Positions 37,403 to 44,224 of a stretch of DNA of 64,000 nt are shown here, piece after piece. A program made the translations under genes and the position numbers. The notes beneath the pieces are model-generated. The model was not told the DNA's origin. It saw only the letters and a program-made list of their open reading frames with translations, and made no database searches. The DNA lies in IMG/VR virus record IMGVR_UViG_3300049988_000124, positions 32,001 to 96,000 of that record. The stretch is one strand, 5' to 3'. Position 1 is the first letter of the stretch; every line of letters starts with the position of its first letter. The DNA is from a virus. Lineage: Duplodnaviria; Caudoviricetes.

Positions 37403-37451
37403 CAAAAAAGAAATAGGAGAAGAGTGAGGGGGCATCTGCCCCCTCACTCTT
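37403..37451. terminator. Bidirectional terminator between the fibre locus and the early region
   Basis: AAGAGTGAGGGGGC-ATCT-GCCCCCTCACTCTT (14-bp stem); CAAAAAAGAAA at 37403-37413 on the left and a T-tract on the right. Confidence 0.85.
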
Positions 37452-39231: not shown

Positions 39232-40200
39232 TTAGTAGGGCATGTCTTCTTCGATCATGAGATCCTCGGTCTCAATGTCGGTTCCAGGATCACCGAAGAT
39301 TGCTACCCGCCTGGTGCGCATACCAATCTTTTCCTGACTAGCCAACCACACTTGCATGGCGGACAGTCGGTTGTTGTTGTGACCCTTGGGTTTGATCAAG
39401 ATAACGTCGTCGGCCATCTCGCACATCAAGTTACCCTGATGTAGATTAGCACCAATCCCGTTCTTGGCCTTGTTGGGTTTAACAACGAGGCAAGGCTTTC
39501 CTGTCTTGCGGTGAACGTAGGTGGCATCCTGATCCTTTAGAAAGTCAGTACCACCGATATACGCATCGACCCCTGGGTACCCACCAGAGATAATGCCGTC
39601 ATAGTCACTGAGTGACAAGCCCATCTTGACTTCGAGGGACTTCTCAATAGCCCAGTCAATCGCCTCCTGCTCTTTTTCCGTGAGACCATAATCGAGGGGA
39701 CCTGCGATCATGAGGTACTTGGAGCGAATGTCTGTCTTGTCCGGTGACATGGACAGGAAGATCGTGGCATCGAGATCACCTAGGAACTCGATCATCATCG
39801 GGTAAACCGTGTCGTAGGTCTGCTTCCCCAGACCACAACCGAGCATCGGCATACCAACGGCGGCGTAGCGATATTGATCTTGCAAGAGAACTTCACGCAA
39901 AGCAATAAGCCCGCGCTTGATATCTGCTTCCTCCGACTTGTTGACGTAGTGATCCTTGGTGGGAAAGTTAATAATCCCCCACGGCTGATCAGTGTCGGTG
40001 ATGATCTGAACCGTGCCGATGCGCAGTTCCTTACTGCGACACGCTGCCCGGTACACTTCGATGTGGTTGGGAGCCTTGTCCCTGAAGACGGCGGCGAGGC
40101 CTGCACCCGATACACCCCTGAGGTTAACCGGGTTGACCATGAAGTCCATGACTGATTCGAACTCGAACATGTCGTGAGTCACGCGGTGAATAAGCGGCAT
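39232..40200 (-). CDS. DarG/Poa1-like Macro domain fused to a SLOG (YspA-like) domain
   Basis: Macro: VNPVNLRGVSGAGLA..F, IINFPTKDH, MPMLGCGLG. SLOG-like: LMIAG, IISGGYPGVD, GNLMCEMADDVILI. Confidence 0.75.
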   Translation of the reverse strand: MPLIHRVTHDMFEFESVMDFMVNPVNLRGVSGAGLAAVFRDKAPNHIEVYRAACRSKELRIGTVQIITDTDQPWGIINFPTKDHYVNKSEEADIKRGLIALREVLLQDQYRYAAVGMPMLGCGLGKQTYDTVYPMMIEFLGDLDATIFLSMSPDKTDIRSKYLMIAGPLDYGLTEKEQEAIDWAIEKSLEVKMGLSLSDYDGIISGGYPGVDAYIGGTDFLKDQDATYVHRKTGKPCLVVKPNKAKNGIGANLHQGNLMCEMADDVILIKPKGHNNNRLSAMQVWLASQEKIGMRTRRVAIFGDPGTDIETEDLMIEEDMPY

Positions 40201-40603: not shown

Positions 40604-40633
40604 ATCAGAGGAAGGGTCGCCCCCTCCTCTGAT
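40604..40633 (-). terminator. Hairpin terminator after the CtrA-like gene
   Basis: ATCAGAGGA...TCCTCTGAT inverted repeat. Confidence 0.6.
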
Positions 40634-40666
40634 ACCAGTAACAACCACTTATGTGTGAAAAGATAC

Positions 40667-41086
40667 TTACGCAGCTTGATCGAGTTCACGGGGATCATTA
40701 CCCCAGGCCTGGATGATGTCGATACTGGCCGCATCCAAGTAGTAACCTCGACCCCAAGATGTCAGCACTTCAAGACCGTAGTTCTTCATCTTCTTGCGAA
40801 GCTTGCAAACAAAGACGTCGACGATCTTTGGTTCCGGCTGATCTATCTGATCGTAGTAGAGGGCGTAGAAGAGACGCTCTCTAGTAACGACTCCGCCTTT
40901 GGCTACGTAAAGTGCGGCAACGATGCGAGCCTCTTGCGTAGTAAGCCCAATCTCAATAGGTGGTTCCCACTCAGGAGGACGAAGAGTAAGGCGAAGCTGA
41001 GTGATCTCTTCTTCTTTCTCACTGAGAAGAGCTTTCAGTTGTCTGATCTCCTCTCTCAGGAGAACAGGATCATCGACTTTAAGCAT
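40667..41086 (-). CDS. CtrA-like OmpR/PhoB winged-helix DNA-binding domain with an N-terminal coiled coil and no receiver domain
   Basis: LTTQE...LY..EPKIVDVFVCKLRKK...TSWGRGYYL closely matches the CtrA C-terminus (EPELKIIDVFICKLRKK...TVWGRGY). Start reassigned to 41086 (GGAG RBS, overlaps the upstream stop). Confidence 0.85.
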   Translation of the reverse strand: MLKVDDPVLLREEIRQLKALLSEKEEEITQLRLTLRPPEWEPPIEIGLTTQEARIVAALYVAKGGVVTRERLFYALYYDQIDQPEPKIVDVFVCKLRKKMKNYGLEVLTSWGRGYYLDAASIDIIQAWGNDPRELDQAA

Positions 41087-41957
41087 GTTTGTTAATCTCC
41101 TGCTTAATGAATGATGCCAGGTGCCAGAACTGCGCTTCTCGCTGATTACCAGCTTCTCTGGCATGTGCCATCTTGGAGGCGACCTCCAGATCCTTTACCC
41201 CTCCCCGACCAACAGCATTGATGATCTGAAGGTCAACAGTTGCAGGCGCACCCTTTAGCGCTAGTGGACTGTTGGGCTTCAGGGTCAGCTCAGTCAGAGC
41301 CTTGATCCAGAGTTGCGAAACGCCAGGGAGACGGAGCTCTACGGCAAGGCTCATGATTCGCTGAACATAAGGACGACCACCTTGGCTGGCGAGCTCGAGA
41401 AGCGCACCAACGCAAATAGTCTCACCAACGCGCATGTCGCCGTAAGGCTTGGGACGCTTGATGACGGATGCTTCCGCGCGCTGACATCCCTCAACAACTT
41501 CAAGGGCATCCTCGTCCTTAGAGGCAACCATGGCCCAGAAGTTCTCCACCGGCGTCACTGACGTACGCTGATTGTTAAGCTTCACGAACGAGCTAGCACG
41601 GCTCTCCTTGGTCTCGCCGACCCGTCCGGGCCAACACCACAATTCACGAATGTGACCGTTGGTGAGCGCCGCAATCGAGGTGTGCTGACCATCTAGGATC
41701 TCGTAGAGAGGCAGACCTGTAGTCTCATCAGTCTCACCGATAGGCGAGACGACTGGCATGTGGAAAAGTTCCCAATCGAATTCAAGCGCAATCTTGGAGG
41801 CAAGTCTGGAACTGTCGCGACTGAGCTGTCGCTGATATTCATCGTTGATTCGAAGCTGACTAGTTTTCAGGAGGATAGGGGAGGGAGTGGGACCAGGATC
41901 GCGCTTCTCCTTACCCTTGGGAAGGATGAGTGCACGAAGTCTGCGTAGCTGAGTCAT
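41079..41957 (-). CDS. ParB/Srx-like N-terminal domain protein (DUF6551-like)
   Basis: SQLRINDEYQR...FDW..F..PVVS...YEILDGQHT..AA. Start reassigned to 41957 (AAAGGA RBS). Confidence 0.7.
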   Translation of the reverse strand: MTQLRRLRALILPKGKEKRDPGPTPSPILLKTSQLRINDEYQRQLSRDSSRLASKIALEFDWELFHMPVVSPIGETDETTGLPLYEILDGQHTSIAALTNGHIRELWCWPGRVGETKESRASSFVKLNNQRTSVTPVENFWAMVASKDEDALEVVEGCQRAEASVIKRPKPYGDMRVGETICVGALLELASQGGRPYVQRIMSLAVELRLPGVSQLWIKALTELTLKPNSPLALKGAPATVDLQIINAVGRGGVKDLEVASKMAHAREAGNQREAQFWHLASFIKQEINKHA

Positions 41958-42030
41958 GGGCACACATCCTTTCATTCGTGTGAGTGCGTCTATAACAAGA
42001 TTGTTTAAAAGGTTGTAATCTTCTCTGAGT

Positions 42031-42071
42031 AGGAGTGGTACACCTTAGGTTAAGTAAAGTGTACCACTCCT
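42031..42071 (-). terminator. 13-bp stem / 15-nt loop hairpin between mucR and the ParB-like gene
   Basis: AGGAGTGGTACAC...GTGTACCACTCCT; no clear U-tract, so it may be a leaky terminator or processing site. Confidence 0.55.
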
Positions 42072-42076
42072 GGTAA

Positions 42077-42520
42077 TTACTTCTTCTTGGTGATCTTCTG
42101 ACCAGCCTTACGACCCAGGCCCATCTTCTTGGCAGTCTCACTGCGCTGCTTCGAATACGAGGGAGCGACCACCGGATAGTCATCCTTCAGTCCGTAGCGA
42201 GCCCGGTACTCCGCTGCGGTCAGACCGTGACCGGTGAGATGTCGCTTCAACGTACGGTAGGGTTTCCCGTCGATCATGGAGATGATGTAGTCGGGCAGCT
42301 TGGCGAGTGACTGACGCACCGTGACTGCCTTGGTGAACGTCTCCGGTGCTTCCTTGGCAACAGACACGCCTCCGTTACCGATTTGCTGAAGCGTAGTGTC
42401 GATGCTCGTGAGAAGAATAACAGCGTCCTCGGCGGTAGCCTTATTCGATGGGTTCTCGAGGAACGCGGCCGTAATCACTGCTGCTACATTGACACGGTGT
42501 GCAGCGTTAATGGGGAGCAT
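42077..42520 (-). CDS. mucR: MucR/Ros-family transcriptional regulator (zinc-less type)
   Basis: AVTVRQSL...DYIISMIDGKPYRTLKRHL..HGLT..EYRARYGL..DYPVVAPSYS..RS..AKKMGLGRK is the Ros/MucR signature. GGAGG RBS. Confidence 0.93.
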   Translation of the reverse strand: MLPINAAHRVNVAAVITAAFLENPSNKATAEDAVILLTSIDTTLQQIGNGGVSVAKEAPETFTKAVTVRQSLAKLPDYIISMIDGKPYRTLKRHLTGHGLTAAEYRARYGLKDDYPVVAPSYSKQRSETAKKMGLGRKAGQKITKKK

Positions 42521-42586
42521 AAGAACCTCCTATTGGGTTGTGGAAAACAACAAGGAACAAGGGCACATAGCAACCTGTCCAAGGTA

Positions 42587-42594
42587 GTAATATA
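42587..42594 (-). promoter_or_regulatory. Early promoter motif TATATTAC upstream of mucR
   Basis: Exact match 67 nt upstream of the mucR start. Confidence 0.75.
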
Positions 42595-42598
42595 AAGG

Positions 42599-43477
42599 TT
42601 GACTAGCGATGGAAAAAACAATGACCGCCATCGTATGACCCCTCAAGTTTTATCAAGGTGTACCATGCCACAACCCGCTATGTCCTACGTACTCTCCCAC
42701 GTTATGCAGAACATTCCTCGCCAGCTCCTCGACCTGGCATTTCGCCCTCGCCAGTTCAACACCACTATTGAACAGCGCATCATCTCTGAGGTAGTTGAGG
42801 GACCCGTCCTTCTCGACCTTAACCTGGTCGGTGGTAAGCAGCGCACCATCATCATGAACTCCCAGTGGCAGATGCCGCTCGATCACGTGGAATCATTCGG
42901 GCTAATCGGTGTTGGTATGGAAGCGACCTTCTACGCCATTCCGCCTGAAGCACGCGAGTATCGCAACATCTCTTCTGTATTGGGGGTGAGTGCATTTGCT
43001 GGTGGCGCTGGTTACGGTGCTGGCGCTAACATGAATGGTCAGGATTTCGGTAACACTGCTACCTCACTCCTCAGTGAGATGCTGGGAACTCATACTGGTC
43101 GCAACAACGCGATCATGCCCCAGATGTCGCTGGAGGGATCGAACATCATTCGCTTCTATCCAGAGCTCATCACCGATGGTCTGGCGATCCGTGTCATGTT
43201 GGAACAGGACTCAGAGTTCCTCAACATGAACACCTCAGCGATCTTCGCGCTGCGAAATTTCTGCCTGTGTGCCACCATGCGCTACGTGGTCAACAACCTC
43301 ATCGTTCCGGTTGATGAGACCGAAGTTGTCGCTGGTATGGAGATCGGGGTAATCAAGACGCTGATCATGGAGTATAAGCAGGAAGTCGAGAAGTACAACG
43401 AACTCCTTGTCAAGCTGAAAGGTGCTATGCACTTTGATCAGCAGACCATTGGTCGCATGATGTATTTTGCACTATAA
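42599..43477 (+). CDS. Putative phiKZ-like virion structural protein
   Basis: Lone + strand gene in the early region. Likely start at 42665 or 42680, with TATGAC at 42634. The IPRQLLDLAF N-terminus resembles phiKZ-like structural proteins, from recall only. Confidence 0.55.
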   Translation: MTSDGKNNDRHRMTPQVLSRCTMPQPAMSYVLSHVMQNIPRQLLDLAFRPRQFNTTIEQRIISEVVEGPVLLDLNLVGGKQRTIIMNSQWQMPLDHVESFGLIGVGMEATFYAIPPEAREYRNISSVLGVSAFAGGAGYGAGANMNGQDFGNTATSLLSEMLGTHTGRNNAIMPQMSLEGSNIIRFYPELITDGLAIRVMLEQDSEFLNMNTSAIFALRNFCLCATMRYVVNNLIVPVDETEVVAGMEIGVIKTLIMEYKQEVEKYNELLVKLKGAMHFDQQTIGRMMYFAL

Positions 43478-43487
43478 GCACGAAGAA

Positions 43488-43519
43488 AGTAAGAGGAGGG
43501 CGTCTGCCCTCCTCTTACT
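43488..43519. terminator. Bidirectional hairpin terminator
   Basis: AGTAAGAGGAGGGC-GTCT-GCCCTCCTCTTACT, 14-bp stem between convergent genes. Confidence 0.85.
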
Positions 43520-44177: not shown

Positions 44178-44224
44178 CAAAAAAGAAATGGGGAAAGAGG
44201 AGAGGGGCATATCGCCCCTCTCCT
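44178..44224 (-). terminator. Terminator: hairpin followed by TTTCTTTTTTG
   Basis: AGGAGAGGGGC-ATATC-GCCCCTCTCCT at 44198-44224; CAAAAAAGAAA at 44178-44188. Confidence 0.8.

Follow-up and report, generated by a model that had tools for sequence, protein, structure and literature searches.

A conserved ParB-like/CtrA-type gene pair with an inserted mucR gene behind a likely early promoter of a phiKZ-like jumbo phage from leaf metagenomes

Introduction

In Caulobacter, the S-to-G1 switch is under the joint control of MucR and CtrA (PMC4083442). Genes for H-NS and MucR in phages and 'CtrA-like' genes in roseophages are already known as annotations, and phage-borne MucR copies are scattered and have been taken as signs of lateral transfer (PMC7710501). 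Here, we analysed a mucR gene, a ParB-like gene and a gene for a CtrA-type winged-helix (wHTH) protein that lie together in the window, that is, the whole stretch of 64,000 nucleotides formed by bases 32001-96000 of the 307,821-bp IMG/VR virus record IMGVR_UViG_3300049988_000124. The conserved unit is the translationally coupled ParB-like/CtrA-type pair, and mucR is a lineage-specific accessory insert.

Two further groups of described systems bear on this locus. According to the accessible text of one 2025 preprint, phage ParB-fold/DUF6551 fusions bind cytidine or adenosine triphosphate (CTP or ATP), mutation of the GxxR Arg abolishes the binding, and Sigma70 fusions are also found among phage ParB-CTPase-fold proteins (10.1101/2025.10.10.680097). 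Every jumbo phage that encodes an RNA polymerase (RNAP) has an AT-rich motif near position -10 of its early operons (review, PMC7598289). No description of a cassette that joins a ParB-fold protein to a coiled-coil-CtrA protein was found in the searchable literature.

Results

The conserved pair and its variable promoter-side slot

A sequence-only reading of this DNA had placed a promoter core, mucR, a hairpin, the ParB-like gene, the CtrA-type gene and a terminator on one strand. All of them were found on the minus strand where it had put them, and the gene identities hold (Table 1). Its remarks on a hairpin with no U tract, on a third gene that is specifically CtrA-like and on a divergent N-terminal region of MucR likewise agree with the results given below.

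Table 1 Features of the unit and further members of its terminator family (window positions)
Feature	Position	Strand	Description
Promoter core TATATTAC	42594..42587	minus	phiKZ-type early (virion RNA polymerase) by motif; conserved flanks ~42567-42624
mucR	42520..42077	minus	147 aa; Pfam ROS_MUCR E 1.7e-32; insert in promoter-side slot
Hairpin after mucR	42031..42071	minus	arms 42031-42047 and 42055-42071; 9 nt past mucR stop
ParB-like gene	41957..41079	minus	292 aa; predicted ParB/Srx fold, DUF6551-related family
CtrA-type gene	41086..40667	minus	139 aa; Trans_reg_C E 1e-12
Terminator-type palindromic hairpin	40633..40604	minus	closes unit; genome's standard type
Palindrome-family examples	37420-37451, 43488-43519, 44198-44224		

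Relatives of the ParB-like protein, about ten at 59-62% identity and one at 42%, were all found in metagenome contigs. An overlapping wHTH gene (~135 aa) lies 3' of the ParB-like gene in all nine related-phage contigs with downstream DNA (L008, L009, L012, L018, L019, L020, L026, L027 and the P0126 contig; L027 is a smaller, different phage at 31% identity). The slot that separates the ParB-like gene from the divergent DUF7484 gene is, by contrast, variable. It is empty in L008, L009, L011, L019 and L026. In L020 and the P0126 contig it contains orphans of 81 aa and 109 aa, respectively, and the pair of L012 is preceded by a large SMC_N-like gene. Among these close relatives mucR was found in the slot of none, only in the window phage, and is thus not needed for the cassette to work.

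A wider survey combined a profile of the ParB-like family with our own hidden Markov models (HMMs) of the wHTH and MucR proteins. Among 50 IMG/VR loci, the wHTH gene was directly downstream in 25, fused in one (L056) and in neither arrangement in 24; the paired genes typically overlap by 4-20 nt, and MucR stood beside the ParB-like gene in 0 of the 50. The pair was adjacent in 11 of 21 cellular-genome loci, about 19 of which belong to named Alphaproteobacteria (e.g. Brevundimonas, Caulobacter, Paracoccus, Rhizobium, Methylobacterium and Hyphomonas). At least three proteins (L056 and two library representatives) carry the ParB-like and wHTH parts as a fusion, and MucR adjoins the ParB-like gene in 1/83 other loci. 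The sequence-only reading had cast the three genes as one co-evolved module and proposed a co-occurrence survey. In the survey the pair recurs, but mucR does not recur with it, and that part of the proposal fell. A complex prediction for the ParB-like and wHTH proteins scored 0.03 against a mark of 0.32 and bears neither way.

Two further arrangements were seen among the surveyed loci. In a prophage-like contig of a proteobacterial metagenome-assembled genome (L087:615-3268), the ParB-like gene directly follows two MucR genes and has no wHTH gene downstream. Two tandem wHTH genes lie 3' of the ParB-like gene in L031, L037, L047, L048, L054 and L096.

The CtrA-type protein

The ATG of the CtrA-type gene lies behind AGGAG, and the gene overlaps the ParB-like stop by 8 nt (ATGCTTAA). 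The CtrA model was the best match in NCBIfam, at 57 bits versus 33 for PhoB (CtrA cut-off, 350 bits). The L008 relative gave 58 bits versus 33, and in the more distant L012 CtrA was still on top with a margin of 5 bits. Full-length homologues of the protein are CtrA proteins, at 47% identity over the domain, and its recognition helix PKIVDVFVCKLRKK and wing WGRGY are nearly identical to those of CtrA.

In the AlphaFold2 (AF2) model (predicted local distance difference test, pLDDT, 83), a long helix of residues 7-35 precedes an OmpR/CtrA winged helix. This helix comprises four heptads with Leu/Ile at the a and d positions, and as modelled it is a coiled coil in place of the CtrA receiver; neither a Response_reg domain nor a phospho-acceptor Asp is present. 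With the receiver replaced by a coiled coil, the protein is expected to form dimers and to need no phosphorylation for DNA binding. The CtrA box TTAA-N7-TTAA does not occur in the whole phage genome (0 found, 1.35 expected); therefore, if the specificity is that of CtrA, the targets must be in the host. Beside related cassettes (57 loci) the box was not found beyond chance level. CtrA half-sites TTAACCAT numbered 12 in place of about 5 expected and showed no meaningful placement.

The C-termini of the protein (..DQAA, 40667-40690) and of its closest relative P0282 (..KLAA) recall ClpXP-type tails; those of other relatives are different. The counterpart of CtrA T168 is Val, and T170 is kept (PMC6847485). 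Elsewhere, a CtrA-like winged helix adjoins DUF6456 in RDJL Phi 1 (gp38) and is fused to it in RcGingersnap gp59 and vB_PmaS-R3 gp25. RDJL Phi 1 gp38 was considered as a ParB-like protein and ruled out (hhalign probability 0.1%).

The ParB-like protein

The AF2 model of the ParB-like protein (pLDDT 81) was compared with the PDB by Foldseek. The matches were pNOB8 ParB-N, KorB (with KorA), Noc and CTP-bound ParB, with probability 1.0, E ~1e-3 and template-modelling (TM) scores of 0.3-0.4; in AFDB the model matched ParB/Srx clusters (E 5e-15). These comparisons support a predicted ParB/Srx N-terminal fold with a helical DNA-binding-like domain. The DUF6551 score was 16.7 bits, below the cut-off of 26.8, and Pfam ParB_N gave no match in the protein or in the genome, nor did a ParA-type ATPase (AAA_31) in the genome. 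A longer start at 41975 was rejected, having no ribosome-binding site and being unused by relatives.

The family profile recovered 2512 cluster representatives, many of them above the DUF6551 cut-off. Relatives found with the profile matched DUF6551 at 41 bits (P0138), and at the search E-value in 16/25 and 18/43 members. Among 43 long family members, further domains were GP88/DUF7227 (8), ECF sigma factor (4), DnaA domain IV (3), Trans_reg_C (2) and GcrA (1), and the ECF sigma fusions involve regions 2/4. The GxxR (GERR) box reads DGQHT across the family, where D, G, Q and H are invariant and Thr takes the Arg position.

The inserted mucR gene

The ROS_MUCR match of the mucR product reached 112.4 bits (cut-off 25.4) and covered profile positions 3-123. 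Its nearest homologues are from Sphingomonas and Novosphingobium (50-59% identity). Alignment with Ros87 showed that the two zinc Cys are replaced by Ser and Asp (S-x2-D, ISMIDG), so that it has no Cys2His2 site. The zinc-less S-x2-D is common to all nearest Sphingomonadales homologues, and the lack of zinc does not keep Ml4 and Ml5 from folding or from binding DNA (PMC9779718). By its sequence, the zinc-less phage MucR belongs to a known subtype of Ros/MucR.

The two parts of the protein have diverged to different degrees. Identity to Sphingomonadales MucR is 73% in the DNA-binding part, the cellular proteins being 77% identical among themselves, whereas it is 31% in the N-terminal oligomerisation region (residues 8-45), compared with 62% among cellular homologues. 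In the H-NS field, dominant-negative poisons retain the oligomerisation domain, and Ler-type competitors retain the DNA-binding domain with the rest changed. The divergent N-terminus would argue, weakly, against poisoning through co-assembly with host MucR, and by analogy the pattern fits a Ler-type competitor or an orthogonal silencer. Another MucR, on viral contig L006:4833-5261, combines a DNA-binding domain of host type with an N-terminus that shows no relation to the one usual in the family.

The mucR gene has an unbroken reading frame and, immediately after the promoter, a strong AGGAGG ribosome-binding site; its guanine-plus-cytosine (GC) content is 56% (phage, 52.6 +/- 3.7%). A strain ~95% alike to the window was present in run X3, from an independent 2018 phyllosphere study. 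Contig 12 of X3 retains the final 21 codons of mucR, the hairpin and the 5' end of the ParB-like gene. Another X3 contig keeps DUF7484 and the promoter core and then runs for at least 255 letters unlike the window (within 42140-42585). The run does not cover 42320-42510, and a 30-mer from the unlike stretch had no match among JGI metagenome contigs. Because the promoter-side contig turns unlike the window while both flanks stay conserved, strains may vary in the 5' half of the slot (5' untranslated region and N-terminal half of mucR), or the assembly may have broken there.

Promoter, hairpins and unit boundaries

The promoter core TATATTAC is strictly oriented. All 24 copies in the whole genome are on the minus strand and the plus strand has none, with ~4-5 expected per strand by chance, and the sites share the flank consensus T-N2-TCA-N7-T-N2-A-N-C-N2-TATATTACT-N-A-N2-TGA. 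Scored by its flanks alone in a leave-one-out comparison, the mucR site gained +6.3 bits and ranked ~16th of 24. In a 24-kb piece of phiKZ's own DNA, all five copies of TATATTAC are on the same strand, and one of them lies 80 nt 5' of the shell gene gp54. The core also precedes the same operon in relatives L019 and L020. A scan for sigma-70-type promoters found sites no commoner than in shuffled sequence. Judged by its motif, TATATTAC is likely an early, virion-polymerase promoter, and the oriented core, the common flanks, the phiKZ motif and the jumbo-phage review give good grounds to expect early expression of the operon. The sequence-only reading had proposed early supply of the regulators; it gains a promoter of phiKZ early type, and as to timing the genes would be expressed early.

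The hairpin after mucR has a perfect 13-bp core, extended to 17 bp with G-U pairs, and no U tract. It folds at -30.8 kcal/mol (z -5.2), and 0/200 shuffles were as stable. As the phage's normal terminator it was ruled out, since it falls outside the GAGGAGGGC palindrome family; an attenuator, a protector of the RNA 3' end and an operator are candidate roles. That family comprises ~60 intergenic perfect palindromes across the genome with the consensus TAGAGAGGAGGGC-N4-GCCCTCCTCTCTA, which are probably the two-way terminators of the phage. The hairpin behind the wHTH gene is a member, and the same kind stands 3' of the wHTH gene in L008, L018 and L019; in L008 a further TATATTAC comes after it. 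It is plausible that mucR to the wHTH gene form a single promoter-to-terminator unit.

The phage and its host

The source is a giant phiKZ-like jumbo phage from leaf metagenomes, with a genome GC of 52%, and the stretch is present in leaf and phyllosphere metagenomes. Its genome contains two RNA-polymerase beta-like open reading frames (ORFs) and a weak PhuZ-like tubulin match. The phiKZ chimallin (gp54), used as query, had no match in the genome, so nucleus formation is not established for this phage. From homologue taxonomy and habitat, an alphaproteobacterium living on leaves is the probable host, and the Sphingomonadales are the likeliest group. Deposited phages shared DNA similarity with this phage only over a 182-nt piece of mucR, and single-protein scans found no close IMG/VR relatives of the ParB-like or wHTH gene. 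The jumbo-phage relatives L008, L012, L018, L019, L020 and L026 have GC contents of 33%-49%, against 52% here, despite the common cassette and promoter type.

Outside the window, the phage genome encodes a 505-aa hybrid histidine kinase (250289-251806 of the genome, minus strand; G000:C1; L079:990-2507). After one generic kinase model, the best named matches of its kinase-plus-receiver core are CckA models (264 and 228 bits), and its receiver domain is the sole one of the genome. GcrA and a separate ChpT were not found in the genome. Downstream of the unit, a macrodomain protein (39232-40200, minus strand) matches the DarG antitoxin model (107 bits, E 1.3e-30), and a DarG-like macrodomain gene is kept 3' of the cassette in L008, L018 and L019.

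Discussion

We favour, at roughly even odds (about 0.5), a reading in which the locus is one early unit, a conserved two-gene cassette with an inserted MucR, that acts on the host CtrA/MucR programme. The virion RNA polymerase would transcribe mucR and the ParB-like and CtrA-type genes soon after injection. The CtrA-type dimer would occupy CtrA boxes on the host chromosome, the phage having none, and the ParB-fold protein would work with this dimer as effector or clamp. Phage MucR would bind the AT-rich targets of host MucR and assemble through its own orthogonal N-terminal domain. Together, the three proteins would override what the host places under CtrA/MucR control, namely the replication origin, motility, the envelope and silenced islands.

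Several points weigh against this reading. The close relatives have no mucR in the slot, and the hairpin behind mucR could stop or attenuate transcription and so uncouple mucR from the pair. The ParB-like protein has no GxxR arginine, which the tested ParB-fold proteins need for nucleotide binding according to the accessible text of the study cited above. The host assignment comes from homologue taxonomy and habitat only, the records holding the stretch include no RNA run, and the DNA targets of all three proteins are ones that we infer. Early nucleus building or degradation of host DNA, if any, may also make regulators of host transcription matter little.

The pair might instead serve the phage's own DNA, as a KorB/KorA-like promoter regulator or as a positioning or partition factor, with the wHTH protein on phage sites. 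Such a role would suit the best fold matches (ParB-N, KorB including the KorB-KorA co-complex, Noc and ParB) and the position of the cassette among regulatory and replication-type genes in many phage and prophage contigs of 40-65 kb. We nevertheless regard it as unlikely, because the recognition helix is almost that of CtrA, TTAA-N7-TTAA is absent from the genome and not beyond chance beside the cassette in the 57 loci, and no repeated candidate site was seen near the operon; the genome also has no ParA-type ATPase, and the GxxR arginine of the protein is missing.

For mucR itself, a Ler-type anti-silencer would compete with host MucR on AT-rich phage DNA and form no silencing filament, which would protect phage DNA of 52% GC in a GC-rich host. 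Its conserved DNA-binding domain and divergent oligomerisation region would be as expected, the L006 MucR likewise has an unrelated N-terminus, and MucR proteins favour AT-rich sites with T-A steps (PMC9779718), which the early promoters provide. But relatives do without mucR, phiKZ-type phages shield their DNA, the binding to phage DNA is itself conjectural, and the GC content of mucR is near the phage average, so that nothing points to a recent arms race. We consider this role improbable.

Distinctly improbable, too, is that mucR and the ParB-like and CtrA-type genes form one dedicated, co-adapted system that seizes the host cell-cycle and silencing network. The three genes do share a strand, one promoter and one terminator, the link between MucR and CtrA is established in Caulobacter (PMC4083442), the unrelated L087 has its two MucR genes directly before the ParB-like gene, and a CckA-like kinase is encoded elsewhere in the genome. 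Against it stand the absence of MucR from the slot of every close relative and from 82/83 other loci, the unrelated ORFs that fill the slot in L020 and the P0126 contig, and the strong hairpin between mucR and the pair. That mucR is a passenger captured from a host or prophage, with no role in infection, we hold to be very improbable: relatives have either nothing or unrelated small ORFs in the slot and phage MucR copies are scattered with signs of lateral transfer (PMC7710501), but the frame is intact with a strong AGGAGG directly behind the early promoter, the composition has been brought near that of the phage (GC 56% vs 52.6 +/- 3.7%), and the 3' end of mucR with its hairpin is kept in the ~95%-alike strain of an independent study.

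A broader reading goes beyond the early unit that we favour, and we think it quite unlikely as it stands. The DUF6551-type ParB-fold protein would be a portable effector that alphaproteobacterial phages aim at the sites of host master regulators through borrowed DNA-binding modules, paired or fused: the CtrA winged helix, DnaA domain IV, GcrA, sigma region 4 and perhaps MucR. In this jumbo phage, its loading sites would be the host CtrA boxes, among them the replication origin, and it would form, with MucR and the CckA-like kinase, a multi-part takeover of the cell-cycle circuit.

What is new here is a receiver-less CtrA domain with a ParB-fold partner as a conserved cassette in dozens of phage and prophage loci, mostly of GC-rich Alphaproteobacteria, and the fusion of the same ParB-fold family elsewhere to DnaA, GcrA and sigma modules. 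The cassette offers a concrete handle on phage interference with the CtrA/DnaA/GcrA/MucR circuit. If the host assignment is true, phiKZ-type jumbo-phage biology extends to leaf-associated Alphaproteobacteria.

Compared with known systems, the early promoters share with those of phiKZ the identical core TATATTAC, the strict orientation and the position upstream of operons, and both phages have two sets of RNAP beta-like genes. The flanks in the window phage differ in carrying TCA and CG upstream and TGA downstream, and the host class differs. The phage MucR has a full-length ROS_MUCR match in common with Ros/MucR silencers and their phage copies (Erythrobacter phage vB_EliS_R6L gp61 and Mesorhizobium phage Cp1R7A-A1). 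It has a DNA-binding domain near that of Sphingomonadales MucR and is of the zinc-less Ml4/Ml5 type, but its N-terminus is only 31% identical, it has no C-terminal basic tail, and its gene stands behind an early promoter of a jumbo phage of lytic type.

The ParB-like protein belongs to the same broad family as the phage ParB-CTPase-fold/DUF6551 proteins (10.1101/2025.10.10.680097), with DGQHT in place of GxxR; for the DUF6551 fusions, the accessible text of that study mentions no link to CtrA-type, DnaA or GcrA modules. As in KorB-KorA of plasmid RK2, a ParB-fold protein is paired with a small DNA binder, here predicted to be dimeric and site-specific, and KorB is among the best fold matches; the likeness is at fold level (TM 0.3-0.4), the window protein differs in having no GxxR arginine, and a partnership would have to be assumed. 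The CtrA-type protein shares with CtrA and with the 'CtrA-like' regulators of roseophage RDJL Phi 1 and Rhodobacter phages a winged helix closest to CtrA. In Rhodobacterales siphophages (L023-L025; Roseobacter, Rhodobacter and Paracoccus phages) the CtrA-like winged helix is tied to DUF6456 and not to a ParB fold, whereas the window protein differs from CtrA in having a predicted coiled coil where CtrA has its receiver, and its partner is a ParB-fold protein.

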